Assembly: GCA_050950285.1 (NCBI GenBank)
Contig: JBMNHG010000002.1
Coordinates: 824,654 to 888,653, forward strand
Origin: Kiritimatiellia bacterium
GTDB lineage: Bacteria; Verrucomicrobiota; Kiritimatiellia; RFP12; JBMNHG01
Direction of reading: 5' to 3'
DNA: 64,000 nt
Shown: one piece after another, positions 3,273-55,433 of the stretch
Numbering within the stretch: the first letter of the stretch is position 1
Layout of the letters: every line of letters begins with the position of its first letter
Translations under genes and position numbers: made by a program
The notes under the pieces: generated by a model
The model's database searches: none
Told to the model about the DNA's origin: nothing
Seen by the model: the letters and a program-made list of their open reading frames with translations, nothing else

Positions 3273-5438
3273 ATGAACCGCCTTTCCGCCGCCTTCCTCC
3301 TCCTCCTCCTGGCCGCCTGCGCGACGGCTCAGGAAACGGCTCCCGCCCCCGCGCCGCGCGACGACCCCATGCGCCCCACCCGGCACATGGCCGACGTCCT
3401 GCGCGGCGCCGCCGGGAATCTCGACGGCATGTCGCTCCGCGCCCTCGTGGTGGGGGCTTCGGGTGACGGCGCGGCCCTTCTTTCCACGCCGGGGGACGAG
3501 GCCCTCGTCGTGGGCGCGGGCGCCGTCGTCCCGCAGACCATCGCGGGAGTGCGCGTCCCGCTCGAGGTGGAGGCGGTCACCCCCGAGGGCGTTTCCTTCG
3601 TCTCCCCGGCGCGCGAGACGCCGCTTCTCCTCCCCGCGACGCTGCAGGCGGCGCCCGCCCCCGACGAAGCGGCCTCCGAGACCATCCTGCGCCACGCCGA
3701 ATGCCGCGACGTGCCGATGGAAATGCTGATGCGCATGATCTCCGGCCAGACCGGCCTGAACATCTCCACCTCCGGCAAGGCGGGGAAGACGCCCGTGACA
3801 CTCTCGCTCCGCAACGTCGAAGCCGACGTCGCCGTGGAGGAGGCCTGCCTCGCGACCGGACTCTGGTTCCGCAAGGAAAGCGGGTCCGGCGTCGTGCGCG
3901 TCACCACGATGGACGAATACAGCGAGTCGCTCTCCTCCTTCCGCGAGGAGCAGACCGAGACCTTCACGCTGCTCTATCCGAACGTAATCGAAGTAGCCTC
4001 GGTCATCTACGGGCTCTACCCCGAGCGCGTGATGCTCTCGCTGGGCGAGGAGGAACTCCTCGATGACGAGCAGAACGACATTTCCCGGCGCTTCGAACGC
4101 TTCAACACCATCGCCGAAAGCGGCGGGTCGTCCTTCCTGGAGATGGATCCGGGCAGGACGTCCTCCTCCGGCGGCTCCGGCGGCGGCACCCTGTCCTTCA
4201 ACGACGGCCGCGTCACGATGGTCGGCCCCGTCCACCAGACCGTCACCCTCGAGGACGCCCGGCGCCTGGCCGCCGCCGAACGCCTTGCGGACACCAACGC
4301 CCTCGGCAACACGCTGGACACGATCCAGTCCCGGGCCGCGAACATCTTCGTGACCGTCAGCCGCAAGAACAGCATGCTGATGGTCCGCTCCAGCGACACC
4401 CGTGCGATGGACGACATCCGCGCGCTCGTGAAACGCCTCGACGTGCCTACGCCCATGGTGCTTCTCGAGGTCAAGGTGCTCGAACTGCAACTCGACGACG
4501 ACTTCACGTCCACCTTCGAATTCGCCGCGTACGAGGACGCCGACGGCACGACGCCCGTCGCCGACCGCTTCGCCTTCACCGACGCCGGCGGGAACCCCCG
4601 CTACCGGACATCGGGCGGCAGACGCGACTGGGACGATGTCGCCGCGGGCTTCCCCGGCTTCAATCCGCTCCTCAACGAGCCCATGGGCGACGCCTTCTCC
4701 TTCCGTCTCCTGAGCCGGCACCTCCAGGCGCGCATCCAGCTGCTGGAGAAAGACGGGAAGGCCCGCACGCTCGCGACGCCCCTGCTGCTCACCGCGAACA
4801 ACGAAGTCTCCCGCCTTTTCATCGGCGAGGAACGCCCGATGGTGAAGAACATCACCAGCCAGACCATCGCGAGCGGCGACACCACCATCACCGTCCCCCA
4901 AACGGAAATCGAGTTCCAGGCCGTGGGCACGCTGCTGCTCATCACGCCCAACATCAACGCGGACCGCACGGTGACCCTCCGGCTCCTGCAGGAGAATTCC
5001 GAAATCCAGCCGAACGCCGCGACCATCCCCATCTACAGCCTGGGGAGCGGCGGGATCGTGCAGAACGTGCCCATCGACGTCGTCTCCTCGCGAAGCGTCA
5101 CCGGCACCTTCGTGGCGAAGGACCGGATGTCCATCGCCGTGGGCGGCCTGATCAAGGAGACCGAGGCCGAACAGGTCCGGCGCATCCCGCTCCTCGGAAG
5201 GCTCCCGCTCCTCGGCTGGCTCTTCCGCGGCACGGAGACGGTGAAGCGCCGCACCGAACTCATCGTCATGGTGAAACCGCACGTCATCAGCACGCCCGGC
5301 GAAGCCGGAGCCGTCAGCCGCCGCACGCTGGACGACGTCTCGGCCCACGCCGCCCGGGACGCCCGGCCCTCCCTGAACGTGATGAAAGCCGACCCCTTCG
5401 AAGCCACCCCCGCCACCGGAGAATGGGCAGGGGAATAA
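3273..5438 (+). CDS. gspD: Secretin (GspD/PilQ family) with signal peptide and an extra N-terminal domain
   Basis: Signal peptide MNRLSAAFLLLLLAAC; LDVPTPMVLLEVKVLE, LATP.LLT.NN, L.ITPNIN, GGLI, RIPLLGRLPLLGWLF...RRTELIV..KPHVI; AAGGA SD. Confidence 0.92.
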   Translation: MNRLSAAFLLLLLAACATAQETAPAPAPRDDPMRPTRHMADVLRGAAGNLDGMSLRALVVGASGDGAALLSTPGDEALVVGAGAVVPQTIAGVRVPLEVEAVTPEGVSFVSPARETPLLLPATLQAAPAPDEAASETILRHAECRDVPMEMLMRMISGQTGLNISTSGKAGKTPVTLSLRNVEADVAVEEACLATGLWFRKESGSGVVRVTTMDEYSESLSSFREEQTETFTLLYPNVIEVASVIYGLYPERVMLSLGEEELLDDEQNDISRRFERFNTIAESGGSSFLEMDPGRTSSSGGSGGGTLSFNDGRVTMVGPVHQTVTLEDARRLAAAERLADTNALGNTLDTIQSRAANIFVTVSRKNSMLMVRSSDTRAMDDIRALVKRLDVPTPMVLLEVKVLELQLDDDFTSTFEFAAYEDADGTTPVADRFAFTDAGGNPRYRTSGGRRDWDDVAAGFPGFNPLLNEPMGDAFSFRLLSRHLQARIQLLEKDGKARTLATPLLLTANNEVSRLFIGEERPMVKNITSQTIASGDTTITVPQTEIEFQAVGTLLLITPNINADRTVTLRLLQENSEIQPNAATIPIYSLGSGGIVQNVPIDVVSSRSVTGTFVAKDRMSIAVGGLIKETEAEQVRRIPLLGRLPLLGWLFRGTETVKRRTELIVMVKPHVISTPGEAGAVSRRTLDDVSAHAARDARPSLNVMKADPFEATPATGEWAGE

Positions 5439-5601
5439 CCCGCGCCCTCCCCTCCCCCGTCTCCGCGGGTTCCGCCGCCCTCCCCGGCGGCGGGCCGCCC
5501 CTTTTTCGCGGAAGCAGCGGAGGCGGGAGGGCGGCACGGCACGCGCCGCCCCTGGAATTCCGCTTGCCGCCTGGAGGCTTTGACTTTACCATGGATTTGC
5601 C

Positions 5602-40041: not shown

Positions 40042-43000
40042 TCAACAGGACATGGGCAGTATCCAGCCCTTGCGTGTGAAGAGGAGCAGGGCGGTGACGC
40101 GTGAGGGGTCGAGGTTGAGCAGGTGGGCTGCGGCGCGGGCGTAGAGCCGCATCTGGAAGGCGTAGCCCTCGGCCGATTCGCGCATGTCGCCCTCGGTCTC
40201 GATGCGGTTGCTCTTGTAGTCGAAGACCGTCGCGCGCACTGCGCGCCCTTCAGCATCCCGCTCGATGACGACGCGGTCGAAGCGGCCACCGGCCAGTTGC
40301 GGCCCCTCGGGCCCCTCGAGCACCAGCTCGAAGGGGGCCTCGCGCCAGACCTCGGCACTTGGAGCGTCGGCCGGACGTGACAAGGCGCGCCGGATATCGT
40401 CGTTCTTCAGGCAGTTGCGGAACTGGCGCTCGACGTCGTTCAGCAGGATGGCGGACTCGGCCGCGGTACGGCGCCACTCGGCAATGATCGCCTCGATATC
40501 CGCCGTCTCCAGCCACTCGATCCGCTCGAAGAGGCGGTGGATGGCGGAACCGAAGGCGCGCACGTCGCCGGCCTCGGCGTTGAAGAGCCAGTGGGCCGGG
40601 AAGGCCCGTCCGGCCTCCTGCAGTTTCGAGGGCTCGTGCCGCGTCAGCTCGACGGCATAGGTCAGCGGTAGCGGCTCCGCTGCCTTGCTGTCCGCCGGTG
40701 CCGGATCCGGTACCTTGACCCGCTGGTGCCAGAGGCGGTCGCCGGTCTGGTAGAGTATGCGTGCGGCGCCGTTAGGCAGTTGCTCGTCGAGCGTCTCTGT
40801 CACGAGGCGCTCGCGCAGCAGGTCGGCCTCGCGGATGACCTTCGCGCTCTTTGCGCGGGTCGGTATGACCATGACCAGCGCCTGCTTGGCGCGGGTCAGC
40901 GCCACGTAGAGCGTGCAGAGCTGGGCGAAGTTGGCCTCGGCATATTCGCGCTCCTGTGCCTGCAGCGGCGCACCGCCGACGGCCTCCAGCAAATCGTTCT
41001 TCAGCGGGTCGAGCACCCAGTCATCGCCCGTCAGGAATGTTGGCCGCCCCGGCTTGCCGAAGCTCTTGGCGTTGGCGCTGAAGGGCACCACCACGAGGTC
41101 GAAGCCCAGTCCCTTGGCCTGGTGGATCGTCATCACGCGCACGGCACCCGCCTCGGCGCTGCTCCTGACCTGGTAGGCGGCGACATGGTCGGCAAAGGCG
41201 TCGGCATCGCAGAGGCCTTGGGCGTCGAAGGCCTCCGCCGCCGTCAGCAGCTCGAGCAGGCGCTGCTGTCCGAAGGCATCGAGGTCGCCAAGCGCGGCGC
41301 CCCACTGGCGCAGGGTGGCGGCAAAACCATGCGTCTGCAGCTCTCCCAGCACGCGGGCGGGGAGTTCTTCGATGGAGCCCAGGCGATCCAGCCTTGCCAG
41401 CGGGCTCATCTGCAGATGGCGCAGGGCGACGGTGTCGCCGGGATGGGCGGCGTAGCGCACCAGCGCCAGCAGCAGCGTCACCACGGGATGGTCAACGATG
41501 CCGCCCTTGCCCTCGTGTACCACCGGCACGCCGGGCAGCAGGCGCCGCAGGGTGTCGACGCAGGCGCGTCCCGAGTTGTTGTCGCGGACAAGAACCGCCA
41601 CCGAGAGGTGCGCCAGCGACGGGCCAGCCTCCTGGAGTACCGCGGCAACGGCCTTATAGGCGGCGGGCTCGAGGGTTTCCTCCTCCTCGTCCTCATTCTC
41701 CGCAGATCTTCGTTTGCCAGTGGAGGATTCGTACTCCACCAGCGCGGCATAGCCCTCGCCCTCGCCCTTGCGGGCGCTTTCATGCCTTTCCCAGAAACGG
41801 CCAAAGGCCTCGACGACGTCCGGGCGCGGTCCGCCATCCTTCACGCTGGGCTCCCAGCCGGCAAGATCGTCGAAGACGGCGTTGACCGCATCAATAACCG
41901 CCGGCAGCGACCGGTAGCATCTGGTGATCGACTCGAGGGCGATGGCCCGCCGGCCGAGGCGGCCATACTTGTCGAGCACTTTGTGGAAAAGACGGTGGTT
42001 GCCGCCGCGCCAGCCATAGATCGACTGCTTGACGTCGCCCACGTAGAAGAAGGAGCGTTCCTCGTCCTGCATGACCTCGTCAATCAGGTTTTCCAGCGCC
42101 TGCCACTGGTTGTCGCTGGTATCCTGGAACTCGTCGAGCATCCAGTGGTCGAGCTGGCTGTCGAGGCGGTAGTCTATGTAGAGACGGTTGGGGTTGGGGG
42201 AGCCGCGGTTGAGGCTCGGCACGGCCGCACCGGTACCCAGCAGCCGCGACAGATCCTCGAAGGTGAAGGGGCCGCCGCTTGCCAGCGACTCGTTATAGTA
42301 CGCATCGTAACGCTCCAGCACCTGGCGCAGGCCATGTGTCTTCGAGGCGGCGCGGTCAATCTCGACGGCAATCAGGTTGATGATCGCGCGGCGCAGGTCG
42401 GGCCAGAGCGCGGCGGGCACCGGATAGTCCTGTCTGTAGTAGGTCAGGGTTGGCGGCGCATCGTGTTCGGCCGCGGCCATCAATTGCTGCGCGACCCGGG
42501 TACTCAAGTCCGGGCAGGGCTTGTCGAGCGCGTGCTCCATGCCCGCGCGCGCCAGCCTGGCGCATGTTTCGCCCAGGCTCCTGGGGCGTCCACTCGCGCC
42601 GAAAACGGTCTCCAGCGCTGCCGCCAGCGCGTCGGCGGTATAGCCGTTGCCGGTCGGGGGATGTTCCCACCAGCGCCCGTTGCCGGGCCAGATGCGAAGG
42701 GTGTCGCCCCAGTGGTGGTCCTTATGATTGCGGTAGAAGTCGTAGCCGTCGGTGATCAGCCTGTCGAGCGTTATGCCGAGCTGCTTGTCCTCCTGCCCCG
42801 CGCGGGCCAGGCGGAGTTCGGAGAGCAGCGCGCCACCCTCCTTGCCGGCGCCCTGGGCGGGGTCGAAGAGGCGGGTGAAAATGGCCTGCCGCAGGGCTTG
42901 GGCCTCGCCGCTGTCGCCGTCCATGGGGCGTGTGTCGGGCGAGATGCCGAGTTCCAGCGGGAAGGCGTTGACGATGCCGAGGATGAAGCTGTCCAGGGTG

Positions 43001-43323
43001 CCGATGCGCAGGCGGTGGCTCTGGTCGAGTAACTGGCGCAGCAGCGTGATATAGGCCTCGGGGGAGTCTTCGGGAGCCGGCAGTCCCTCGCGGGCGATCG
43101 TGTCGCGGGTTTCGGCGCGTGTCCTGCCGTCGGTGGCGGCAGCGGCCAGGCGGGCGACGATCTTGTCGAAGATCTCGCCGGCCGCCTTGCGGGTGAAGGT
43201 CAGCGCGCAGATGCGGTCGGGCGGAATGCCCGCGGCCATCAGGCCGAGGTAGCGGTGCGCCAGCCGGAAGGTCTTGCCCGTGCCGGCCGAGGCGGAGATC
43301 GCGCGGTTCTGAAGCTGGTTCAT
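40042..43323 (-). CDS. addA: UvrD-type helicase-nuclease (AddA/RecB-like)
   Basis: ASAGTGKT, LTFTRKAAGE, DEFQDT, VGDVKQSIY.WRG, MTIHQAKGL.F, LYVALTRA, C-terminal G.FDR...DYK...Q..LY. Confidence 0.92.
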   Translation of the reverse strand: MNQLQNRAISASAGTGKTFRLAHRYLGLMAAGIPPDRICALTFTRKAAGEIFDKIVARLAAAATDGRTRAETRDTIAREGLPAPEDSPEAYITLLRQLLDQSHRLRIGTLDSFILGIVNAFPLELGISPDTRPMDGDSGEAQALRQAIFTRLFDPAQGAGKEGGALLSELRLARAGQEDKQLGITLDRLITDGYDFYRNHKDHHWGDTLRIWPGNGRWWEHPPTGNGYTADALAAALETVFGASGRPRSLGETCARLARAGMEHALDKPCPDLSTRVAQQLMAAAEHDAPPTLTYYRQDYPVPAALWPDLRRAIINLIAVEIDRAASKTHGLRQVLERYDAYYNESLASGGPFTFEDLSRLLGTGAAVPSLNRGSPNPNRLYIDYRLDSQLDHWMLDEFQDTSDNQWQALENLIDEVMQDEERSFFYVGDVKQSIYGWRGGNHRLFHKVLDKYGRLGRRAIALESITRCYRSLPAVIDAVNAVFDDLAGWEPSVKDGGPRPDVVEAFGRFWERHESARKGEGEGYAALVEYESSTGKRRSAENEDEEEETLEPAAYKAVAAVLQEAGPSLAHLSVAVLVRDNNSGRACVDTLRRLLPGVPVVHEGKGGIVDHPVVTLLLALVRYAAHPGDTVALRHLQMSPLARLDRLGSIEELPARVLGELQTHGFAATLRQWGAALGDLDAFGQQRLLELLTAAEAFDAQGLCDADAFADHVAAYQVRSSAEAGAVRVMTIHQAKGLGFDLVVVPFSANAKSFGKPGRPTFLTGDDWVLDPLKNDLLEAVGGAPLQAQEREYAEANFAQLCTLYVALTRAKQALVMVIPTRAKSAKVIREADLLRERLVTETLDEQLPNGAARILYQTGDRLWHQRVKVPDPAPADSKAAEPLPLTYAVELTRHEPSKLQEAGRAFPAHWLFNAEAGDVRAFGSAIHRLFERIEWLETADIEAIIAEWRRTAAESAILLNDVERQFRNCLKNDDIRRALSRPADAPSAEVWREAPFELVLEGPEGPQLAGGRFDRVVIERDAEGRAVRATVFDYKSNRIETEGDMRESAEGYAFQMRLYARAAAHLLNLDPSRVTALLLFTRKGWILPMSC

Positions 43324-46166
43324 GGCGTGACCCTCCACGGAACGGACGGCGGTTCAATCGTATTGGCCGGATCGTCGAGCAGGAGCCCGGCAAAGTCGTC
43401 CTCGTAGCCGCTCCTGAGACTGCCCGGCGGCCAGAATTTCCCATCCCGGATGTTGGCGACCACCGCCCGCGCGCAGGCCATGGCCGAATCCTGCAGGGCA
43501 TCGGTGTAACCATCCCAGAGCAGGAAGCCGGTATCGCCCAGCGCACTCGGCAGCGCGATGTAGCCCGTCTGGACATCGGGGCCCAGCTCACCGCGCACGA
43601 ACTCGCGGTAGAGCGGCAGTTGCAGGTCGGTCCAGCGTCTCTTAATATCTTTGCCATCCGGGTTGATGAGCAGCGCGGAGAGCTCCGCCTCGGGGATTGG
43701 CTCGTCCTCGCGGGCGGGGGCAAAATGGGTCTCGACGGGACTCCTGGCCTTGTCGCTGGTCTTGTAGTCGAGGATGACGCAGACGCCAGTCTCCCTGTGG
43801 CGATCTATGCGGTCGATTCGTCCGTTGATGGTCACGCCACCGATGATGCAGGATAGCGCCTGCTCATTCTTCACGATCTCCCATCCCGCCGCGTGCCACT
43901 CCACCTGTCTGGCGGCGAAGGCGCGCAGGCGGCGCACGGCGCTATCGAGGGCTAGCTCGACCCCCAGCCAGGGGCTGGCGCCGTAGCGCCGGCGGCAGTT
44001 CTCCCGCAGATGCCGCTCCAGCCAATCGCCCAGCCTCGCGGCATCGCCGCAGCCCCAGACGGCCTTCCCCGCGTCGGCCATGGCCTCGAGCGTGTCATGC
44101 ACGAGGGTGCCGAAGGCCCGTGCATCGGGCTCGCGGGCGCGGTCGTCGAGTACCTCCATGCCGAGCACCTCGGCGAGGTAGAAGCGCAGCGGGCTGGCGA
44201 GGTAGGTCTTGATGGACGAGGGCGAGAGGCGGTGTGTGCGCTTGTCGCTGATGACCGCGGGTGGCAGCAGGGCGGGATCGAGCTTGAAGCTGATCTGGTA
44301 GGCCGAGGCACTGCGCGCCGCTGTCGGTTCGCTGAAGAGCAGCTCGGCGCGGGCGACCAGTTGCTCGTCGGGGCAGCGGAAGAGGAGCCGCGAGGGGCGC
44401 AGCGGATCGCCGGCCGCCGAGGTCTTGCCCACCAGCAGGACTATGCGTCCGGCGGTGCGGCGCTGGGCCAGCAGGGCCGTCAGCACGTAGGCGTCGCGCG
44501 CCACGCGCATGGCGTCGTCGCGCAGTCCGAGCCTGTTGCGCAGCGTGTCGGGCAGGAAGAGGTCGCCCACCTTGCCGTCGGGCACATAGCCCTCGTTCAT
44601 CCCCGCGACGAAGAGCAGCGGGGCGGGGTTCCAGGCCAGCTCGAGCCAGCCCTCGAGCTCGAGCGGTTCCTGGTTGCGTTCGGGGCGTATCTGTCCCTCG
44701 CGCAGACGCGCCAGGAGCACGGCAGCGGCCGTGTCGTCCGCCGGAGCGGCGGCTCCGGCGCTCTCCAGCTCGCGCAGGACACCGTCGAAGGCGGTGACAT
44801 CCTGCTGGAAGGCGGCATCGGCGGGGTTGTCGTCGTGCAGGAGGCGCGATTTGTAGATCTCCTGCAGCACATCGCGCAGGCCTCCGGCCAGTCCGCCCTC
44901 GTTCAGGTGCCGCCGCCAGTGCCGTATCCGGTCGAGCGCCCCGGCAGGTGGACGGCAGGCCTGTTCGCCGTCGCGCTGGTACATGTCGGCCAGCGTGACG
45001 GGCAGGTGTTCCGTCTGGAAGGCGTCCAGATCCCGCAGAAGGCCGGTGGCGTTGCCGAGTGCCGCCAGGACGTCGGGATGGCGCAGCAGGGTGGCGACCG
45101 CGTCGTAGCTGTCGCGCGCGCGCAGATCGAGCAATGCCTGCACGAGGCGGTAGAGGGGCGAATCGCTGAAGGGGCGGTTGCGCGGATCGAAGGCGGGCAG
45201 CCCGAGGGTCGCCAGTTCGCGCTGCAGCGGCCCGACCGCCTCCTGATCGGGCACGCCGATGGCGATCTGCGGCGTCTCTCCATCCGCCGCAGCGGGCGGC
45301 GCGGCCTGCAAGGCCTCGGCCACTGTGCGGGCGATGCGCGCGGCCTGTTCCTCGGGGGTAGCTTCGAGCCTGAGGACGGCGTTGCCCACGTCGATCTGCC
45401 GGGCGGCCCACTTCTCCGGCAAGGGGCGTCCCCAGGCATCGAAGAGCGCGGCCTCATCCGGGGGCGCGGCCACGAGCACCTCGACGGCGACGCCGGCCGC
45501 GCTCCAGCGCGTCAGGAGCGTCAGGAGCAGCTCGGGCGGATCGGGCAGCGCCGCCAGGATGACGCGCCTGACCTCCGCCGGCACCGGCGCGCCGGTGGCC
45601 TGGGCCAGCTTGACGGCCAGCGGATCGTTCAGTTTCCATGCGGCGAGCTGGCGCATGTAGCGGTCCTCGAGTTCGGCCAGCTCGTTCCAGCGCTCCTGCT
45701 CCTCGAGCTCCGCGCCCCTGGCGGCGACCTGTCCGAGCGACAGGTTGCCATCGGCCAGTTCGCGGCGCAGCTCCTGGAAGCGGCGCGCCACCGGCAGGGC
45801 CCAGTTGCAATCGGAGGGACGGTCGCGCCGCGTGCCGAGCAGCGCGGGGCATGCGCCGGGCTCGATGGCGGTCAGTACCGCCACCCAGGCCAGCAGGGAT
45901 TGCAGTGCCGTGGCGGTACCGGGGGCGGCTTCCGGCTCGAGCAGCACGGGGGGCGTGATGATCTCCGGGCCGAGCAGTGCCCGTCCGCATTTATGGGCGG
46001 CCACCGGCAGTGCGTTCCGCAACCGCCAGCTTGACTGGCGCGTCGGCACCACCAGCAGGGTGTCGCGCATGTCGGCACGCGCCGCGGGGGTGCCGTCCAG
46101 AAGGTAGGCCGGAACGGTCTCGCAGAGCGGCCGGTCCCAGCCCAGGAAATGGCGTGTTGTGCCCAT
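43320..46166 (-). CDS. addB: AddB/RecC-like inactive helicase with PD-(D/E)XK nuclease
   Basis: Degenerate N-terminal helicase (VVPT), GMNEG..P, LSPSS..TYL..P.RFYL, FGTL.H, GRIDRID, LDYKT, LQLPLY; overlaps addA. Confidence 0.88.
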   Translation of the reverse strand: MGTTRHFLGWDRPLCETVPAYLLDGTPAARADMRDTLLVVPTRQSSWRLRNALPVAAHKCGRALLGPEIITPPVLLEPEAAPGTATALQSLLAWVAVLTAIEPGACPALLGTRRDRPSDCNWALPVARRFQELRRELADGNLSLGQVAARGAELEEQERWNELAELEDRYMRQLAAWKLNDPLAVKLAQATGAPVPAEVRRVILAALPDPPELLLTLLTRWSAAGVAVEVLVAAPPDEAALFDAWGRPLPEKWAARQIDVGNAVLRLEATPEEQAARIARTVAEALQAAPPAAADGETPQIAIGVPDQEAVGPLQRELATLGLPAFDPRNRPFSDSPLYRLVQALLDLRARDSYDAVATLLRHPDVLAALGNATGLLRDLDAFQTEHLPVTLADMYQRDGEQACRPPAGALDRIRHWRRHLNEGGLAGGLRDVLQEIYKSRLLHDDNPADAAFQQDVTAFDGVLRELESAGAAAPADDTAAAVLLARLREGQIRPERNQEPLELEGWLELAWNPAPLLFVAGMNEGYVPDGKVGDLFLPDTLRNRLGLRDDAMRVARDAYVLTALLAQRRTAGRIVLLVGKTSAAGDPLRPSRLLFRCPDEQLVARAELLFSEPTAARSASAYQISFKLDPALLPPAVISDKRTHRLSPSSIKTYLASPLRFYLAEVLGMEVLDDRAREPDARAFGTLVHDTLEAMADAGKAVWGCGDAARLGDWLERHLRENCRRRYGASPWLGVELALDSAVRRLRAFAARQVEWHAAGWEIVKNEQALSCIIGGVTINGRIDRIDRHRETGVCVILDYKTSDKARSPVETHFAPAREDEPIPEAELSALLINPDGKDIKRRWTDLQLPLYREFVRGELGPDVQTGYIALPSALGDTGFLLWDGYTDALQDSAMACARAVVANIRDGKFWPPGSLRSGYEDDFAGLLLDDPANTIEPPSVPWRVTP

Positions 46167-46646
46167 GTTCACCTATAAACGGCAGTTGTGCGGGCGGGAA
46201 CCGGGCAATGCCCGTATCCATCGGCTTTGGGTGAAACCCGCGATACGGGGATCATAACACAAAGCGCAACGATGCGTCCTATACTTTCCGTTTTTACCTG
46301 AAAACAGAGCACGGGACAAACAGCATCGTTGCGTGGGTATCCCGGCCCGCCATCCCAGCCCCTTCCGTACCCTGTCACCAGCCGATTACCCGCTTGATTC
46401 AAAAGCGTCTCTGTACCATCATCCCTATCCATAACGATACGACTCGGAGTTCCGAAATGAGCGAGAAAGGGATCAAGACGGATTGCCCCCGAACGTGGCC
46501 GGGGTGCCTGCGACACGGGAACTGCAAACGCCGTTACACGCCGTCTTTCAAGCAGGCTTGCCCCCGATTCTCCATTGTTTTACAATGACGGTGCAACAGG
46601 AAAAGGGATGTTGTGCGACGCGTTAGACATGAAGGATAAATGACCG

Positions 46647-48203
46647 ATGGCAAGGCAAAACGGCAACGGAAAATCTTTGGAAAAATGGATATGGGATGCC
46701 GCCTGCTCCATCCGCGGTGCCAAAGAGGCCGCCAAGTTCAAGGATTTCATCCTGCCTCTGATTTTTACCAAACGGCTGTGTGATGTCTACGACGATGAAC
46801 TGAATCGCATCGCCCAAAAGGTTGGCTCGCGCGCGAAGGCCTTTAAACTCGTGCGCCACGATAAAAAGCTGGTACGCTTCTTTGTGCCGCTGCAGCCAGA
46901 GGATCCGAACGACGAGGTTTGGTCCGTGATCCGCAAGCTCTCGGACAAGATCGGCGAGCGGCTGACTTCGCACCTGCGGGCCATTGCGGATGAGAATGCG
47001 TTGCTCAAGGGCATTATCGACCGCGTGGATTTCAACGCTACCACGCATGGCGTGCGAGACCTTGACGACACCCGCCTCTCCAACCTCATTGAACGCATTA
47101 GCGAGAAGCGCCTCGGGCTTAATGACGTGGAGCCGGACATCATCGGGCGCAGTTACGAGTACCTGATCCGCAAGTTCGCCGAGGGCGGCGGGCAGAGCGC
47201 CGGAGAGTTCTACACCCCGCCCGAGGTCGGCACCATCATGTCCCGCGTCCTCCAGCCCGAGCCCGGCATGGAAATCTACGACCCCACCTGCGGCTCCGGC
47301 GGCCTGCTCGTGAAATGCGAGATCGCCGCCATGGAGGCGGCCCGGGACGAAAAGCCCGCCCCGCTCAAGCTCTACGGGCAGGAATACACGCCCGAGACCT
47401 GGGCCATGGCCAACATGAACATGATCATCCACGACATGGAGGGCCAGATCGAGATCGGCGATACCTTCCGGAACCCTAAGTTCCGAAAGGGCAATCGGCT
47501 CCAGACCTTTGACCGCGTCGTCGCCAATCCCATGTGGAACCAAGATTGGTTCACCGAGGCCGACTACGATGCCGACGAGTTCGACCGCTTCCCCGCCGGG
47601 GCGGGCTTCCCCGGCAAGTCCTCCGCCGACTGGGGCTGGGTCCAGCACATCCACGCCAGCCTGAACGAACGCGGACGCGCGGCCATCGTCCTCGACACCG
47701 GAGCCGCCTCCCGCGGCTCGGGCAACGCCGGCACCAACAAAGAGAAGAACGTCCGCCAGTGGTTCGTGGACCGGGATCTCGTCGAAAGCGTGCTCTACCT
47801 GCCGGAAAACCTCTTCTACAACACCTCCGCCCCCGGCATCGTCCTGTTCCTCAACAAGGCCAAGCCCCCGAAACGCCGTGGCAGGGTCTTCCTCGTCAAC
47901 GCCTCCCAGATCTTCGAGAAAGGCGACCCCAAGAACGTCATCCCCGCCGACGGCATCGACCGCATCGTCGAGACGCTCGTCGGCTGGCAGGAAGCGGAGA
48001 AGCTCAGCCGCGTCGTCGATCATGCCGAACTGAAGCGGAACGACTACAACATCTCCCCCAGCCGCTACATCCACACCGGCGACGAAGCGACCTACCGCCC
48101 CATCCCGGAGATCGTCGCGGAACTCGACGCCATCGAAGCCGAAGCGCGAGAGACTGACCACGCGCTTCGGGCCATCCTCAAGCAACTGGGGGTTGGCGCA
48201 TGA
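46647..48203 (+). CDS. hsdM: Type I RM methyltransferase subunit
   Basis: LE.WIWDAACSIRG, IG..YEYL..KFA, GEFYTP, YDPTCGSGGLL, LYGQE, VANPMW (motif IV variant), LP.NLFYNT, YNISP.RY. Confidence 0.95.
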   Translation: MARQNGNGKSLEKWIWDAACSIRGAKEAAKFKDFILPLIFTKRLCDVYDDELNRIAQKVGSRAKAFKLVRHDKKLVRFFVPLQPEDPNDEVWSVIRKLSDKIGERLTSHLRAIADENALLKGIIDRVDFNATTHGVRDLDDTRLSNLIERISEKRLGLNDVEPDIIGRSYEYLIRKFAEGGGQSAGEFYTPPEVGTIMSRVLQPEPGMEIYDPTCGSGGLLVKCEIAAMEAARDEKPAPLKLYGQEYTPETWAMANMNMIIHDMEGQIEIGDTFRNPKFRKGNRLQTFDRVVANPMWNQDWFTEADYDADEFDRFPAGAGFPGKSSADWGWVQHIHASLNERGRAAIVLDTGAASRGSGNAGTNKEKNVRQWFVDRDLVESVLYLPENLFYNTSAPGIVLFLNKAKPPKRRGRVFLVNASQIFEKGDPKNVIPADGIDRIVETLVGWQEAEKLSRVVDHAELKRNDYNISPSRYIHTGDEATYRPIPEIVAELDAIEAEARETDHALRAILKQLGVGA

Positions 48204-48610
48204 AATTCAGCCCCCAAGCAACCGTCAAGGATTCCTTGACAGTTCAAGCCGAGAATGCGCGGAATGAGAAAGCGAACAGCGCTCTCCGCCAAAACCGCGT
48301 CGAAAAAGGCGAACTTGGTCAAAATCCAGTTGTCCGGGATTTCCGGACAACTGCGGCTGACGGCAAAATTTACGGCGTGCTTCACTACAATCTGAAGGCC
48401 ATTCTGGCTGTTGGCTTCAGAGTTAAATCGCCCCGTTTCACACAATTCCGTCGCTGGGCCAACACCCAGCTTCAAGAATTGATCGTCAAAGGCTTCGTCA
48501 TGGACGACGAACGCCTCAAGAACCCCGGCGGATGGGACTACTTCGACGAACTGCTCGCCCGCATTCGCGAGATTCGGGCAAACCGCAAGCAACTGGGGGT
48601 TAAGACGTGA
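48200..48610 (+). pseudogene. RhuM-family (virulence RhuM/Fic-associated) fragment
   Basis: VR.FRTTAADGK.Y...HYNL..ILAVG.RV.S.R.TQFR.WA...L.E..KGFVMDDERLK...DYFDELL.RIR.IRA, then an abrupt KQLGV tail copied from hsdM. Confidence 0.8.
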
Positions 48611-50327
48611 GCGCAACAGCAAAGCTTGCCGACGTTGCCAAAATTGTGATGGGGCAATCGCCCCCATCCACCAGTTATAACGACGTCGGAGAAGGGCTTC
48701 CCTTCTACCAAGGGAAAACGGATTTCGGAGCGACTTACCCGACACCACGCATTTATTGCCGCGAGCCAAAAAAACTGGCGGAATCCGGGGACATTCTGAT
48801 GTCCGTTCGTGCCCCAGTGGGTGCAACGAACCTCTGCGACAGGCAATCCTGCATCGGTCGGGGCATCGCCGCGATTCGGGCGAAGGGCATCGACCGCGAC
48901 TTCCTCTATTTCTATCTCAAGGAGATTGAGGACTACATCGACAGTCTTGGCTCTGGCGCAATTTTCAAGGCAATCAACAAATCACAGCTAGCCACGCTAC
49001 CCATCAACAAAGCAGGCATCCCACTTCCCGAGCAGAAGAAGATTGCGCACATTCTTTCGACGGTGCAGCGGGCGATCGAGGAGCAGGAGCGGATCATCCA
49101 GACCACCACCGAGCTGAAAAAGGCTCTCATGCACAAGCTCTTCACCGAAGGCCTCCGCAACGAACCCCAAAAGCAAACGGAAATCGGCCCCGTGCCTGAA
49201 AGCTGGGAGGTGTGCCGCTTCGAGGATGCCGTAAGTATCAAAAGCGGCCAAGTTGACCCAACGCGGCCTCCGTTCTCTAACTTGCTACACGTCGGTTCTG
49301 AGAATATCGAAAGCGACTCTGGGAGGCTGATAAACTTACAAACAAATGCAGATCTCAAGATATCTAGTGGCAATTACCACTTCACGCCTGAAGACGTTCT
49401 ATATTCAAAGATTCGACCTTACTTAAACAAAGTGGCGTTACCGAATTTTGAGGGGACGTGTAGCGCGGACATGTATCCACTACGGTCAAACTTCCATTTT
49501 ACACGAGAGTTTTTGTTCTATTACCTACTTTCTGATGGTTTCAAAAAGAAGCCGTCTCGTTCCAAGACAGAACGGGAATTCCAAAAATCAATCGCTTGCA
49601 ACTTGGTAGCATTCAATTGCCCTGTCCGTCAAAGGCGGATCAGAAGGAAATTGCGGACATCCTCGCCTCGTGTGACCGAAAACTGCATTCCGCCCGGCAG
49701 AAACAAGCCGCTCTCCAAGACCTTTTCCGCACCCTCCTTCACGAACTGATGACCGCGAAGATTCGCGTTCATGAACTGGAGTTTACGCCCAAGGAAGCCC
49801 ACAGGGAAGGGGCGCAAGGCAAAGAAGCACAAGAGACAGGGGCACGGGTTTTCCAACCCGTGGACGCAATCACGGACAAGAATGTCCGTGCCCCCAGGAA
49901 TGTCCATGCCCCCAAGAATGTCCGTGCCCCGTTACCATTGCAAAAAGACAAAGGGGCACAAGGCAAAGGGGCAAAAGGAAAAGGGGCACGGGTTTTCCAA
50001 CCCGTGGACGCAATCACGGACAGGAATGTCCGTGCCCCCAGGAATGTCCATGCCCCCAGGAATGTCCGTGCCCCGTTACCAGTGCAAAAAGACAAAGGGG
50101 CGCAAGAGACAGGGGCACAAGAGACAGGGGCACGGGTTTCCCAACCCGTGGACGCAATCACGGACAAGAATGTCCGTGCCCCCAGGAATGTCCATGCCCC
50201 CAGGAATGTCCGTGCCCCGTTACCAGTGCAAAAAGAGAAAGGGGCACAAGACAAAGGGGCACAAGGCAAAGGGGCAAAAGGAAAAGGGGCACGGGTTTTC
50301 CAACCCGTGGAGGTGAAAGCACCATGA
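48607..50327 (+). pseudogene. hsdS: Type I RM specificity subunit, frameshifted at the A5 run 49543-49547, with the 3' frame running through the REP array
   Basis: TRD1 MGQSP...G.PF.QG..DFG, SVRAPVG; central PLPEQ.KIA.IL...ELKKALM..LFT; TRD2 YSKIRPYLNK; -1 frame RTGIPKINR..P....Q.EIA.IL...LFRTLLHELMTAKIRV; conserved HsdS ends about 49790, first stop 50327. Confidence 0.9.
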
Positions 50328-50406
50328 ACAAAAGCGTCCATGCGTCTGAAAGTGAAACCACGGACAAGAATGTCCGTGCCCCCAAGAATGTCCGTGCCCC
50401 CAGGAA
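49805..50406. repeat. Tandem REP/REPIN array upstream of RAYT
   Basis: GGGGCACGGGTTTYCCAACCCGTG at 49839, 49983, 50127, 50286 (periods 144, 144, 159), each followed by CACGGACARGAATGTCCGTGCCCC plus 18-nt and 15-nt sub-repeats. Confidence 0.97.
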
Positions 50407-51097
50407 CGCCTGTGCTCCTGTACCTTTCCAAGAGCCCCCAAGCCCCCAAGAGCCTCTGCATTTCCATGAAGACGCCGTTTTCTACAACAGCCTTGCGCAG
50501 ACGGATGCGCACCGAAGGAACCTGCCCCATTGGCAACAAGGACATGTGTGGTGCTTTGTGACGTGGCGTCTCGCCGATTCTTTGCCAAAGGCGAAGTTGG
50601 ATCAATGGAATGCAAATCGCAACGCATGGCTCACACAAAACCCCAAGCCTTGGGACGACGAAACCGAAGCCGCCTATCACGAAACATTCTCCCGCCTGAT
50701 CGATGAATGGCTGGATCAAGGCATCGGCTCGTGCGTGCTGCGAGATCCGGCCAACGCGAAAATCGTGGCCGACGCATTGACGCATTTCAATGGCGAACGA
50801 TACGAAATCGCCTCGTTCGTCGTGATGCCCAACCATGTGCATGTGCTGTTCCGCCCGCTTGGAGACCATCGGCTGCCGGAAATCCTGAAATCGTGGAAAG
50901 GCTTCACGGCGCGGGAAATCAACAAGAGGATGGGGAAGACGGGGACTCTTTGGCAAGATGAGTATTGGGATCGGCTGGTTCGCAGTGAACGACACTTCTT
51001 CAAGGTGGCGGAATACATCCGCCAAAATCCGAAAAGCAACGGGGCACAAGGCAAAGGGGCACGGGTTTTCCAACCCGTGGAGGTGAAAGCGCCATGA
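50324..51097 (+). CDS. rayT: REP-associated tyrosine transposase (RAYT, HUH/Y1 family)
   Basis: RRNLPHW, FVTWRLADSLP, VVMPNHVH (HUH), SWKGFTA..IN, LWQ.EYWDR..R, catalytic YI..NP; flanked by REPs. Confidence 0.93.
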   Translation: MNKSVHASESETTDKNVRAPKNVRAPRNACAPVPFQEPPSPQEPLHFHEDAVFYNSLAQTDAHRRNLPHWQQGHVWCFVTWRLADSLPKAKLDQWNANRNAWLTQNPKPWDDETEAAYHETFSRLIDEWLDQGIGSCVLRDPANAKIVADALTHFNGERYEIASFVVMPNHVHVLFRPLGDHRLPEILKSWKGFTAREINKRMGKTGTLWQDEYWDRLVRSERHFFKVAEYIRQNPKSNGAQGKGARVFQPVEVKAP

Positions 51098-51188
51098 ACA
51101 AGAGCGTCCATGCGTCTGAAAGTGAAACCACGGACAGGAATGTCCGTGCCCCCAGGAATGTCCGTGCCCCCAGGAATGTCCGTGCCCC
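51041..51188. repeat. REP/REPIN unit downstream of RAYT (direct repeat of 50283-50406)
   Basis: 51053-51176 matches 50283-50406 with 4 mismatches; three 18-nt GAATGTCCGTGCCCC units. Confidence 0.95.
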
Positions 51189-51219
51189 AGCATAAAACAT
51201 CTTGCGAAAGGACGCCCCC

Positions 51220-54159
51220 ATGCCCAAACCCACCGAACATAAGACCGTGCAATCTCGGCTTCTGGCATACGCGCAGGAGATCGGGTGGACGTATGTGCCG
51301 AGGGCTGAGGCGGAGGCGCGGCGCAGGTTCGATCCCGGCGGTGCGACACAAGAGGAGCGGGCGCGGTCGGCATCGCTTTTCTTCGGCGAACGCCTGCATG
51401 CGCAGGTGTGCGCGTTCAATCCGCAGTATCGCGAGACCGAGGGGGCGCTGGTCGGTGAGTTCCAGCGGTTGCACAGCGATATCTACGGCAATCGGAATTT
51501 TTTGGAGGTGCTGCGCAACCGGCGCACCTTTTTCTGCGAGGAGGAGCGGCGTGAGTTGGATCTGACCGTGATCGACTACGGTGACCTCGACCGACCGCAT
51601 GACGCGCGGCGCAACGTGTATGAGGTGACCGAGGAGTTCGTGGTCAGCAACAGTCGCTTTACCACACGCGAGGACGTGGTCTTTCTCATCAATGGCATCC
51701 CCGTGCTTTTCGTGGAGTGCAAGAACGCGACCAAAAGCGAAGCTGTCGCCTTGGGCGTGGATCAGATCCGGCGTTACCACACCGAGACGCCGGAAAGCAT
51801 GGTGCCGCAGATGCTCTTCACGGCAACCGAGGCGATCGGTTTTGCGTACGGCGTGACGTGGAATACGGTGCGGCGCAATATCTTCAACTGGAAAAGCGAG
51901 AAAGCCGGCAACCTCGAAGCGAAAGTGAAGGCGTTCTGTGCGGTGCCGCATGTGCTACGGCTGCTGCGGGATTTCATCGTGTTCGCGGAGAAGGATGAGG
52001 AGCTGCAGAAAATCATCCTGCGCCAACATCAGGCGGCAGCCGTGGATCGGGCCGTGGCGCGGTGTTTAGACCCGATTCGCACGCGCGGGTTGGTCTGGCA
52101 CACGCAGGGCAGCGGCAAGACCTTCACCATGATCAAGGCGGCGGAGTTGCTCTTCAGAGCCCCTGAGGCGGAGAAGCCAACGGTGCTGCTGCTGATCGAC
52201 CGCAACGAATTGGAAGACCAGATGCTCAAGAATTTGGCGTCGGTGGGTCTGGGCAACGTGGCGCACGCGGACTCAATGGCGGCGCTGGTTCGTCTGCTGC
52301 GCTCGGACTACCGGGGGATCATCGTGACGATGATCCACAAGTTCCGCGACATGCCGGCGAACCTCAACACGCGTCCGAACATCTACGTGCTCATCGACGA
52401 AGCGCACCGCACCACCGGCGGCGACCTCGGCACCTTTTTGATGGCGGGGCTGCCCAACGCGACGTTCATCGGCTTTACCGGAACGCCGATAGACAAAACC
52501 GCCTACGGTCGCGGCACGTTCAAGACCTTCGGCTGTGAGGATGACAAGGGATATTTGCACAAGTACTCCATTGCGGAGAGTATCGCGGACGGCACGACCT
52601 TGCCGCTCTACTATGGCATGGCGCCGAACGAGATGCTGGTGCCGCACGAGGTGATGGAGGAGGAGTTTCTCGCTTTGGCCGAGACCGAAGGGGTGTCGGA
52701 TGTCGAGGAACTGAACCGGATTCTCGACCGGGCGGTGAATCTCAAGAACTTCCTTAAAGGCAAGGAGCGTGTGGCGCAGGTGGCGGCCTATGTGGCCGAG
52801 CACTACCGGACGAATGTTGAGCCCATGGGCTATAAGGCCTTTCTGGTGGCGGTAGACCGCGAGGCGTGCGTCTTCTACAAGGAGGCGCTGGACACACTGC
52901 TGCCACCGGAGTATTCGGAGATCGTCTTCACAGGCAACAACAATGATCCGCCGCATCTTAAGCGCTGGCATCTTGATCCCCAGCGCGAGAAGCATATCCG
53001 CAATGACTTCAAAAAGCCGGACCAGACACCCAAAATCCTGATTGTCACCGAAAAGCTGCTGACCGGGTTCGATGCGCCGATCCTCTACGCGATGTATCTG
53101 GACAAGCCTATGCGCGATCACACGCTTTTGCAGGCAATCGCACGAGTGAACCGTCCCTACGAAAATGAGGCGATGGAGAAGGTCAAGCCGCATGGCTTCG
53201 TGTTGGACTTCGTGGGGATCTTCGACAAGCTCTCCCGGGCACTGGCCTTCGACAGCAAGGAGGTCGACGCCATTGTCAAAGACATCCGGCTGTTGAAGCA
53301 GCTCTTCAAAGCCAAGATGGAGTCTGTTGCTCCGGCTTATCTGGCGCTGATCGAGCGGTACTTTGACGACAAGGACGTCGACAATCTGATTGAACATTTC
53401 CGTGACAAAGAGCGACGCAAGACCTTCTTCCGGGAGTACAAAGAGATTGAGACGCTCTACGAAATCATTTCGCCGGATGCCTTCCTGCGACCGTTCATGG
53501 ACGATTACGCGACGCTTTCAAACATCTACGAGGTGGTGCGCAACACCTATGTGCGTCGGGTGTTTGTGGACCGCAATTTCCTGGGCAAGACCAACGAACT
53601 GGTGCAGCAGCATATTGGCGCGACGATGGAGGTCGGGGCGGAGTCGGTCAAAGTGGGCCTGGAGATGCTCGAAGCGATCCGGCACACGAACGCGGGGAAG
53701 GCCACCAAGGTCATCAACCTGATCAAGGCGATTGAGAAGCAGGCGGCGAAAGAGAGCGACGACCCATTTTTGATTGCTCTGAGTGTGCGGGCTCAAGCAG
53801 TGTTGGAGAAGTTCGAGGACCGCCAACTCACAACCGAGGAAGCACTGGAGGAGCTACAGCGCGAGATCGAAAAGGAGGAGAGGCGCAAGCGCGAGCAGGC
53901 GAAGCGCGGAATGGACAGCCTGACCCACTTCGTGTTCTGCAAGTTAGAAGAGAACGGCATCCCGAGCGCCGAGGAGGTGAGCCGTCAGGTGGCTGCCGCC
54001 TTTATCCAATACCCGAATTGGCGCGACAGCGAGGCGGAGTTGCGTGAACTGCGTAACCACGTTACTTTTGCTCTAGTCGCGGTCGAGGACGATTTTGGAA
54101 AAGTGACAGCCATCGTTGAAGCTCTGTTTTCGCTTCTTTGCAGGGAGGGCCGGTCGTGA
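51220..54159 (+). CDS. hsdR: Type I RM restriction subunit
   Basis: D.VFLING.P...ECKN...QI.RY, HTQGSGKT, IDEAHR, GFTGTP, LLTGFDAP, LLQAIARVNR; AAGGA SD. Confidence 0.95.
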   Translation: MPKPTEHKTVQSRLLAYAQEIGWTYVPRAEAEARRRFDPGGATQEERARSASLFFGERLHAQVCAFNPQYRETEGALVGEFQRLHSDIYGNRNFLEVLRNRRTFFCEEERRELDLTVIDYGDLDRPHDARRNVYEVTEEFVVSNSRFTTREDVVFLINGIPVLFVECKNATKSEAVALGVDQIRRYHTETPESMVPQMLFTATEAIGFAYGVTWNTVRRNIFNWKSEKAGNLEAKVKAFCAVPHVLRLLRDFIVFAEKDEELQKIILRQHQAAAVDRAVARCLDPIRTRGLVWHTQGSGKTFTMIKAAELLFRAPEAEKPTVLLLIDRNELEDQMLKNLASVGLGNVAHADSMAALVRLLRSDYRGIIVTMIHKFRDMPANLNTRPNIYVLIDEAHRTTGGDLGTFLMAGLPNATFIGFTGTPIDKTAYGRGTFKTFGCEDDKGYLHKYSIAESIADGTTLPLYYGMAPNEMLVPHEVMEEEFLALAETEGVSDVEELNRILDRAVNLKNFLKGKERVAQVAAYVAEHYRTNVEPMGYKAFLVAVDREACVFYKEALDTLLPPEYSEIVFTGNNNDPPHLKRWHLDPQREKHIRNDFKKPDQTPKILIVTEKLLTGFDAPILYAMYLDKPMRDHTLLQAIARVNRPYENEAMEKVKPHGFVLDFVGIFDKLSRALAFDSKEVDAIVKDIRLLKQLFKAKMESVAPAYLALIERYFDDKDVDNLIEHFRDKERRKTFFREYKEIETLYEIISPDAFLRPFMDDYATLSNIYEVVRNTYVRRVFVDRNFLGKTNELVQQHIGATMEVGAESVKVGLEMLEAIRHTNAGKATKVINLIKAIEKQAAKESDDPFLIALSVRAQAVLEKFEDRQLTTEEALEELQREIEKEERRKREQAKRGMDSLTHFVFCKLEENGIPSAEEVSRQVAAAFIQYPNWRDSEAELRELRNHVTFALVAVEDDFGKVTAIVEALFSLLCREGRS

Positions 54160-54476
54160 GCGGAGGCGGCGAAAGGGAACGTTTCAAGGCACGGGTCTTG
54201 GCGTGGGCGGACAAGCTGGGCGTCAAGGCGCATGCGGTCTACATCCGACCGATGCGGCGCAAATGGGCGTCCTGTTCCACGACCGGCACGTTAAGCTTCA
54301 ATGCTGATTTGGTTGGGATGGACACGGCGCTTGGCGACTATGTGATCGTGCATGAACTCCTGCACTTCTCGGTACCCAATCACGGCAAACTCTGGAAAAG
54401 CTTGATGCGAGCCCATCTTGGCGATTACGAAGCTTCCGAAGCGGCATTGAAACAGTGGGTTCCCGACAAGGCCTAG
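54156..54476 (+). CDS. Short YgjP/M48-like metallopeptidase-domain protein
   Basis: M..KWASCS..G.LSFN..L....DYVIVHELLH..VPNHG..W; GTGA overlap with hsdR. Confidence 0.88.
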   Translation: MSGGGERERFKARVLAWADKLGVKAHAVYIRPMRRKWASCSTTGTLSFNADLVGMDTALGDYVIVHELLHFSVPNHGKLWKSLMRAHLGDYEASEAALKQWVPDKA

Positions 54477-54644: not shown

Positions 54645-55433
54645 ATGAGTGCCATTGCAGACGCAAAGCAGGAAGAAATCAAGAGGCGACTTCGTGAGAT
54701 CGGGCGCACCGAGGGCGTTCGTATCCTCTACGCATGCGAATCGGGCAGCCGCGCGTGGGGCTTCCCCTCCGCCGACAGCGACTACGACGTGCGTTTCATC
54801 TACGCCCATCCGACCGAGTGGTATCTGTCGCTCGAGACCGGCCGCGACGTGATCGAGCGCCCGATTAACGATGATCTCGACATCAGCGGCTGGGACATCC
54901 GCAAGGCGCTCAATCTCTTCCGCCGTTCCAACCCGCCGCTATTGGAGTGGCTCCAGTCTCCCATCGTCTACATGCGCGCGCCGGGTTTCGTCGAGCGGAT
55001 GCGGGAGCTGATGGTCACGCACTATGATCCCCGCGCCTGCATGCACCACTACCTGCAGATGGCGCGCGGAAACTGCCGCGAATTTCTCAAGGGCGAGCGC
55101 GTGAGAACCAAGAAATACTTCTACGTGCTACGCCCCGTCCTCGCCTGCCTCTGGCTCGAGCAGGGACGCGGCCCCGTGCCGACCCTCTTCCAAACACTGG
55201 TGGATACGCTTGTGCCTGAGGGTGAGCTGCGGGACACGATCAACGAGCTGGTGGAACGCAAGCGGAACGACCGTGAAGTGGCCGACGGCCCCCCGATCCC
55301 GGTCTTCAACGAATTTCTCGGTTCGCAGCTTTTACGCCTGACGCAGAGCACCCGGCAGCTCACAAAGGCGGGCACCAGGGATGTCGAAGAACTCGATGCC
55401 TTCTTCCGCGCCACCATCGGCTACAGGGAGTAA
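54645..55433 (+). CDS. Pol-beta-superfamily nucleotidyltransferase (YcgL/RlaP-like)
   Basis: LYACESGSRAWGFPS.DSDYDVRFIY, RDVIE, GWD.RKAL.L...SNP.L.EWL.SP, KKYFYVLRP. Confidence 0.9.
   Translation: MSAIADAKQEEIKRRLREIGRTEGVRILYACESGSRAWGFPSADSDYDVRFIYAHPTEWYLSLETGRDVIERPINDDLDISGWDIRKALNLFRRSNPPLLEWLQSPIVYMRAPGFVERMRELMVTHYDPRACMHHYLQMARGNCREFLKGERVRTKKYFYVLRPVLACLWLEQGRGPVPTLFQTLVDTLVPEGELRDTINELVERKRNDREVADGPPIPVFNEFLGSQLLRLTQSTRQLTKAGTRDVEELDAFFRATIGYRE

Follow-up and report, generated by a model that had tools for sequence, protein, structure and literature searches.

Between hsdS and hsdR of a type I restriction-modification (RM) operon of a Kiritimatiellia bacterium lies an intact gene for a transposase of the HUH/Y1 type, a REP-associated tyrosine transposase (RAYT), which is set within five doublets of repetitive extragenic palindromes (REPs). 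The operon, ordered hsdM-rhuM-like-hsdS-RAYT-hsdR-ygjP, is found in a stretch of 64,000 bp (contig JBMNHG010000002.1 of assembly GCA_050950285.1, positions 824,654 to 888,653 of the forward strand), which we call the window; coordinates are those of the window and, unless stated otherwise, refer to its + strand, and G000 denotes the genome to which it belongs. On the basis of sequence comparisons we consider it fairly probable that the RAYT and its REPs are a passenger that is translated by read-through and that rides on, and reshuffles, type I RM operons. The cassette likely persists in these operons since the host genes tolerate the read-through peptide. Ribosomes would be able to read through because the REPs of the cassette contain no stop in any + frame, and as the same element is found at other places in the RM operons of relatives, it likely survives through co-translation and travels with its host genes. 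The durable result is an RM-linked, frame-tolerant and horizontally moving RAYT clade. The allele series, the mosaic structure of the operon and the correction of a frameshift in hsdS are new here.

Reading frame of hsdS

As assembled, the frame that opens at the hsdS start codon stops at 49749, and the conserved C-terminal region lies in a different frame; the original prediction, which had HsdS reading through the array, overlooked this break. An extra A at position 49542 is carried by six of six sequencing runs (bioreactor and digester metagenomes from six different studies; one of the runs possibly represents the source sample), and the one-base loss is therefore an assembly error, leaving the A run at 49542..49546 one base short in the assembly. 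The run shows one length in all six data sets, with the reservation that contigs drop rare variants. A pseudogene or a phase-variable hsdS was considered and rejected on account of this intact A run. Nor does the locus resemble a phase-variable type I system in its gene content, as tblastn gave a single hsdS hit in the genome, with no second copy and no invertase.

With the missing A counted, hsdS (48607..50327) encodes, by arithmetic, 573 amino acids. Its frame passes the conserved end of the protein, LMTAKIRV, at 49769 and continues for 185 REP-encoded codons to a TGA (50325-50327) that overlaps the ATG of the RAYT gene, so that the predicted run through the array stands once the frameshift is corrected. 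The REP array sits after the last conserved HsdS region. The three genes of a type I RM system, hsdM, hsdS and hsdR, are all present, hsdS being intact by read evidence only, and the motifs of HsdM and HsdR are intact in the window.

REP array and junction units

The RAYT-REP cassette measures approximately 1436 bp (49782..51217), its limits being given by alignments and by the short-read contigs of runs X2 and X4, which join 49781 directly to 51218. Five REP doublets were located, with hairpins starting at 49843/49871, 49987/50015, 50131/50159, 50290/50359 and 51060/51129; each doublet consists of two hairpins with 8-bp stems in inverted orientation, and the first folds with a z-score of -4.8. 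The upstream array (49807..50313) comprises three doublets and a fourth hairpin and, as previously described, has tandem periods of 144, 144 and 159 nt with sub-units of 18 and 15 nt. A unit of 156 nt stands on both sides of the RAYT core: the first copy is at 50263-50418, and the second (51033..51188; 92% identity) carries the RAYT stop codon and the fifth doublet and lies in the segment where the ancestry of the operon switches. A REP-encoded mini-ORF (open reading frame) of 33 codons (51094..51195), in the frame of hsdR, ends at the TAA at 51193.

That the array or the read-through should be an artefact of assembly has a next to negligible probability. One proven assembly error lies 260 nt upstream of the array, and no short-read contig spans the whole array, the exact copy number of which rests on the assembly. 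Against this, the private parts of unit 1 (49885-50008), unit 2 (50029-50144) and unit 3 (50168-50277) are present in short-read contigs with 0-1 differences, and the independent assemblies of G040, a genome from another family of the same order, and of the metagenome locus L114 share the same hsdS-array join. The array is not an assembly artefact.

From 49790 to 50313 there is no TAA, TAG or TGA in any of the three + frames. Stop-freedom was considered as proof of selection and was rejected, since all + frames are open and, on resampling of the 144-nt unit, 43% of the draws have no stop in a given frame. The three phases of the array end at the TGA at 50325, end at the TGA at 50314, or continue into the RAYT; any of them would thus appear to be viable, L114 representing the case that runs into the RAYT. 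The spacing of the repeats has fared better as an unusual feature. All nine distinct REP spacings within ORFs (in the window, G040, L114 and the locus L115) are multiples of three, compared with four of nine for the other REP clusters of G000; the count omits spacings across a junction or the RAYT core, and the array units have their 15- and 18-nt building blocks in common, so that the nine are not independent events. The periodicity does look non-random.

The first junction unit (50290..50327) consists of a REP hairpin, a Shine-Dalgarno-like GGAGGTG (50309-50315) and the ATGA stop/start overlap, the GGAGGTG being predicted to be paired partly in a 4-bp mini-hairpin. The window contains two such units, and G040, L114 and the locus pair L115/L116 have one apiece; in every case the unit closes the upstream frame at that TGA. 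From this arrangement the RAYT appears to be translationally coupled to the HsdS tail.

The RAYT protein

The RAYT gene (50324..51097) specifies a protein of 257 amino acids resembling TnpA-REP, with the HUH motif (H171-V-H173) at 50834-50842 and Tyr231 at 51014-51016. The ORF is intact, as had been proposed, and H171, H173 and Y231 are invariant in 30 aligned RAYT cores. The protein surpasses the cut-off of the Pfam model Y1_Tnp (40 bits; cut-off 23) and scores below those of the NCBIfam equivalog REP_Tyr_transpos (74.5 bits; cut-off 80) and of the IS200 model (29.9 bits; cut-off 55). The best hit by sequence in the PDB is 4ER8, the TnpA-REP of E. coli (E 3e-4), and the structure model (mean predicted local distance difference test score, pLDDT, 70.7) matches 4ER8 and IS200-family TnpA, which is consistent with a Y1 fold. 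Residues 1-49 and the C-terminal end have values below 50; these low-confidence ends, comprising the N-terminal 49 and the C-terminal 20 residues, are encoded by REPs. The low confidence of the same repeats here, together with composition, suggests that the HsdS tail is likewise disordered.

The dN/dS ratio of approximately 0.03-0.12 is that of a gene under purifying selection. The RAYT is present in one copy in the genome, falls below the IS200 cut-off and has no tnpB-like ORF among its neighbours, and hence does not qualify as an IS200/IS605 transposon; no PADLOC model matches it. The 5′ GT[AG]G foot was not found next to the REP stems, the bases 5′ of which are GGGG, or GGAG in some dispersed copies; a few have GTAG three bases further up.

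Sites occupied by the RAYT clade

Relatives of the RAYT core were recovered from 50 metagenome loci, and 37 of these, including 33 of the top 38, lie in this type I RM family (several of the non-RM loci are short contigs); the RM-linked relatives span 57-96% identity. The notion of a co-translated RM-RAYT module is supported insofar as the array is in a coding frame, the RAYT is apparently coupled and the link recurs, and finds no support in the part that attributed to it a switch of specificity. Within the one operon family the clade occupies three sites, namely the end of hsdS, HsdR residue ~45, and the linker between the nuclease and motor of HsdR at residue ~228, where most relatives insert and which is empty in the HsdR of the window. 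Two-sided insertions at this linker, with HsdR before and after the core, were seen at 20 loci; their flanks are 54-294 nt long, and in 19 of them the core is in frame with HsdR at both ends. The REP hairpins are read in differing frames among the loci of relatives, and a conserved NVRAPR peptide was rejected for that reason. The RAYT is intact at loci where HsdR has decayed, stops early or is deleted (L129, L131-L133, L138).

In the phylum as a whole the subfamily is present in 94 of 401 genomes, and among the 150 matches listed 48 lie in frames of at least 500 codons. Half of the 28 phylum loci examined have the RAYT core in the same frame as another protein, an RM gene in 3 or 4 of these 14. 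The partners include HsdR, Eco57I- and MmeI-type enzymes, a DUF1156 protein, leucyl-tRNA synthetase (LeuRS), the exonuclease VII large subunit XseA (three), PriA, radical-SAM enzymes (three), a phosphatase and an esterase. REPs accompany the RAYT in frame in the LeuRS gene of L213 (G648:C31), the XseA genes of L221, L222 and L228, the PriA gene of L234 and the B12 radical-SAM genes of L231, L232 and L235.

The recurrence of the clade in one RM family might alternatively mean that the RAYT is a domesticated accessory nuclease, which would process single-stranded DNA during restriction with the REPs as docking or regulatory sites, in a role such as defence, restriction alleviation or repair of self-inflicted cuts. 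The breadth of identity over which the RM link is maintained, the invariant catalytic residues and the purifying selection would all suit such a function, as would the way in which the fusion partner switches between HsdR and HsdS with co-expression retained. We nevertheless regard it as unlikely. The RAYT core is absent from all of 80 genome loci with HsdR relatives, although these were chosen in order of their resemblance to an uninterrupted HsdR and the sample is biased toward empty alleles. In a quick HsdR tree the RAYT-bearing HsdRs are scattered among RAYT-free ones, the RAYT and HsdR trees both having many open or weak forks. The persistence of the RAYT beside decayed hsdR copies, its occurrence in frame in LeuRS, XseA, PriA and others, and the lack of a PADLOC model also speak against an accessory role.

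Close alleles and exchange of TRD2

The closest alleles form a series. In G040 the RAYT is 99% identical over the core, the end of hsdM, rhuM and the first target recognition domain (TRD1) are the same as in the window, TRD2 is different, the HsdS tail has 77 codons, and the arrays are longer at both ends of the RAYT. In L114 HsdS, REPs and RAYT form a single ORF of 713 amino acids. L115/L116 have a TRD1 that is 96-98% identical to that of the window at the DNA level, a normal hsdS stop 7 codons after the conserved motif, and a RAYT fused to HsdR at residue ~45. The tail in the three closest alleles is thus 185, 77 or 299 (fused) codons long, its start point being always the same. In RAYT-free controls the hsdS tail is 5-25 codons, with a median of 11 (motif found in 42 of 80 loci).

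The original prediction held that REP cutting or array expansion would remodel or switch the specificity subunit, the repeat tail being a functional part of HsdS. That the tail is in frame in three alleles with a constant start point, that TRD2 differs among near-identical alleles and that the spacings are multiples of three could be cited in its favour. The breakpoints of the TRD2 exchanges, however, lie in conserved hsdS spacers (approximately 49189-49213 and 49691-49713), 70-650 nt upstream of the first REP and not at REPs, and the exchanges are also seen on contigs that skip the whole cassette. These are the X2 and X4 contigs, whose join is known by the flanks 49781/51218, the shorter side being 30 nt, and whose depth equals that of a different TRD2. 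Positioned beyond the last conserved region, the tail is unable to alter a TRD; it varies in length and sequence, and a near-identical TRD1 is found with a normal stop in L115/L116. Contrary to the expectation that the hsdS of relatives would be stop-free into the array, 13 of 16 RAYT-bearing loci with a located hsdS end have normal ends of 1-18 codons, and most relatives carry the RAYT in HsdR with a normal HsdS. We consider a specificity switch very improbable. The HsdS tail is more readily seen as a recent, variable and tolerated by-product, which is probably unimportant.

Variation of hsdS by exchange of TRDs is well known in type I RM systems, and the TRD2 differences with breakpoints in conserved spacers conform to this. 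What differs here is that REPs are present outside the exchanged part and that neither a second hsdS nor an invertase was found in the genome.

Several minor features were noted in these loci. In G040, REP doublets without a RAYT lie in frame at HsdR residue ~45, near the hsdR start (L021; G040:C26). L115 has duplicated N-terminal HsdR fragments at 5300-5560, each ending in REPs; duplicated HsdR starts without REPs are present in L040, L078 and L080. Between rhuM and hsdS of L114 there is a gene of 347 codons (548-1591), the N-terminus of which looks TIR-like (Toll/interleukin-1 receptor).

Operon mosaic, probable transfer and dispersed REPs

From the end of hsdM to TRD1 the window is 93-100% identical to G040, and of the 43 informative sites in the RAYT it shares 38 with G040. 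In hsdR, by contrast, its identity is 95-100% to L114 and 63-88% to G040. By this comparison at least one of the alleles has arisen by recombination, the breakpoint falling within the REP segment from 51041 to approximately 51230; the exact crossover cannot be placed within it because the junction copies are partly homogenised. Of 319 genomes of the order, G040 alone gave a full-length match to the TRD1 DNA, and the addAB-like flanking genes are not common to the window and G040. The GC content dips to 48-64% at the operon compared with 66-74% upstream, which is poor in GC for this genome. The operon and the cassette have likely spread between species together. The RAYT is not vertical, fixed and extragenic, being in frame at three sites and having a 99% copy in another family. 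RAYTs have been described as immobile, extragenic and vertically inherited, and the RM-linked alleles depart from that description.

Hairpin B gives 94 matches in the genome with up to two mismatches, five of which are at this locus. The REP hairpin counts are 89 in G000, 115 in G040, 33 in G023, 4 in G048 and none in the other 57 of 61 genomes; none was counted in the congener G001 (92% complete). The copies of G000 outside the operon have no coding signal on either side and are essentially extragenic, the call being a rough one made by a simple hexamer score that also missed the REPs of the low-GC operon.

These 89 extragenic hairpins would suit an ordinary REPtron that had landed by chance, in one lineage, in a variable cargo slot between hsdS and hsdR, with no lasting link to RM; the read-through, the spacing in multiples of three and the mosaic would then be accidents of REP sequence and slippage. 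The gap between hsdS and hsdR in the controls indeed ranges from ~0 to 5.8 kb of unrelated cargo, and the REPs are poor in stops by composition. A single landing leaves unexplained that the clade occupies three different sites in one operon family, mostly in frame within hsdR, and we hold a chance event to be quite improbable.

A stronger form of the passenger reading, which we advance tentatively and think less likely than the passenger itself, is that the clade is an element homing to RM operons. Stop-free REPs and a portable junction would allow it to insert into translated positions, to depart from them and to shift between them; REPs nicked by the RAYT would serve as crossover points at which M/S halves are re-paired with R halves of foreign lineages, and each transfer would seed ~100 REPs in the chromosome of the new host. 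If true, this would add a mobile stage to the life cycle of RAYTs and a route of RM reassortment driven by an element. How a REP family starts in a new lineage is an open question, on which near-identical RAYTs in two families, placed at different positions of a mobile RM operon, have a bearing, both hosts, G000 and G040, being full of matching REPs (~100 each). The four close alleles (tail of 185, tail of 77, HsdS fusion and HsdR fusion) provide a comparison set for free and fused RAYT, which also suits the question of whether the RAYT matters to restriction.

A number of observations were made on other repeats and Y1 genes of G000. An IS200-like Y1 gene (C8:57452-57796; L164) is accompanied by large palindromic repeats of its own, with a single doublet of the REP family described here ~200 bp upstream, and a third Y1 gene (C8:340721-340951; L166) has a weak score and a long C-terminal extension. 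Tandem arrays of the same REP doublet are found at C2:967582-968135, C2:570536-570714, C6:189099-189729 and C11:239334-241032, with periods of 66, 51, 121 and 559. The same cluster of three doublets is present on C10:49578-50172 and C11:877-1470, one spacing being 240 in one and 239 in the other; the stretch may have been duplicated in assembly, with a further error of one base.

Proposed mode of persistence

The loss of the HsdS stop, which takes translation 185 codons into the array and which in close alleles is paralleled by a tail of 77 codons, a fusion or no tail, together with the presence of the clade at three sites of one operon family, nearly always in frame, suggests the following course for a read-through passenger. 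A disordered C-terminal tail would leave HsdS working, much as methylation still works when green fluorescent protein is attached to the C-terminus of EcoKI HsdS, as given in the accessible text (PMC2914225). Ribosomes ending at the ATGA may open the mini-hairpin over the RAYT ribosome-binding site, and we propose that the RAYT would by this means borrow the expression of the operon. By analogy with the biochemistry of its family, the RAYT would nick and rejoin single-stranded REP hairpins; nicking, slippage and homologous exchange would alter the length of the array, shift the cassette among REP-marked sites and seed chromosomal REPs. Finally, the pattern of ancestry in the operon would be accounted for if the REP segment served as the crossover zone in which an hsdM-hsdS-RAYT half was joined to an hsdR of foreign lineage.

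Some of the data weigh against this scheme. All nine spacings keep a single frame in the closest alleles, even though the remaining phases would also seem viable, and this may point to selection acting on the peptide or on coupling. That 33 of the top 38 loci belong to a single RM family is a closer tie than plain tolerance would predict, and could mean a function in restriction. The bias of the 80 controls toward empty alleles is a further reservation. With a length of only 15 kb, the G040 contig may have been assigned to the wrong bin. In G023 the doublets of the 33 hairpins are arranged differently and no close RAYT was detected, and G000 has two further Y1 genes, one with a REP doublet ~200 bp upstream; these findings weaken the case that the REPs belong to this RAYT.

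Comparison with known systems

The nearest counterparts are the REPtrons, in which a RAYT (TnpA-REP) is associated with REPs in the form of bacterial interspersed mosaic elements (BIMEs) or REPINs. Common to both are the HUH and single-tyrosine nuclease, with 4ER8 as the best hit, and a single-copy gene flanked by inverted hairpin doublets, which here recur approximately 90 times, mostly between genes. They differ in the foot, GGGG/GGAG instead of GTAG, and in that the gene and REPs lie here in the coding frames of an RM operon, with evidence of horizontal transfer and change of position. The E. coli TnpA-REP cleaves and recombines single-stranded REPs at CT and needs the GTAG foot, according to the accessible text of Corneloup 2021 (PMC8266576). 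Bertels and Rainey, in the accessible text of their preprint (bioRxiv 2021.07.10.451892), describe RAYTs as staying in one extragenic space and as absent from horizontally transferred elements.

The window RAYT corresponds in its motifs (NHVH at 170-173, WQ at 210-211 and YIRQNP at 231-236) to the [ND]HVH, WQ and YI[LR][NQ]NP of TnpA-Y1 subclass 2.7 (Quentin et al. 2018, PMC6006769, accessible text), a fit that is judged by motifs and not by the hidden Markov models of that study. It also shares with this subclass the long variable N-terminus and the long REPs. That study left out long fusion proteins, and the word "restriction" is absent from its main text. It describes REP insertions in frame within the RAYT gene itself in subclasses 2.4 and 2.8; here, whole RAYT cassettes are found in host genes.

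Intragenic REPs and the palindromic elements of Rickettsia (RPEs) are, in the accessible text of Di Nocera 2013 (PMC3733652), palindromes translated in frame at termini or in linkers; the former are most abundant in Opitutus terrae, with clusters of up to 82 residues. The array described here differs in that 185 residues are translated and that a transposase is included, with a stop/start junction and a ribosome-binding site.

Inteins and other in-frame parasitic elements show that a nuclease-bearing element can survive within the coding sequence of conserved genes. No splicing domain was seen here, and the insert would remain in the protein.

The accessible text of Bertels 2017 mentions restriction in a reference only. 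A literature search that mostly lay outside subscription journals gave no paper on RAYTs within type I RM genes or on fusions of the two; the additional files of Quentin 2018 and additional file 3 of Di Nocera 2013 may list such cases.

Other genes of the operon and its surroundings

The hsdM gene (46647..48203) encodes a type I methyltransferase with matches to Pfam N6_Mtase and HsdM_N and the motifs DPTCGSG and NPMW. It is followed by a short RhuM-like passenger gene (48200..48610) that overlaps the ends of hsdM and hsdS. The similarity of its product (136 amino acids) to Pfam Virulence_RhuM and PADLOC PDC-S05 is confined to the N-terminal third, and as the 3′ part of the gene resembles the end of hsdM it may be truncated. 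The hsdR gene (51220..54159) encodes 979 amino acids, with the nuclease, Walker A and DEAH motifs intact, and a gene for a YgjP-like peptidase domain (54138..54476) is the last of the operon family. Just past the operon lies a gene for a nucleotidyltransferase of the RlaP family (54645-55433). The RM island is immediately preceded by two large minus-strand genes (40042-46172), the translations of which look like a helicase-nuclease pair of the AddAB/RecB type.

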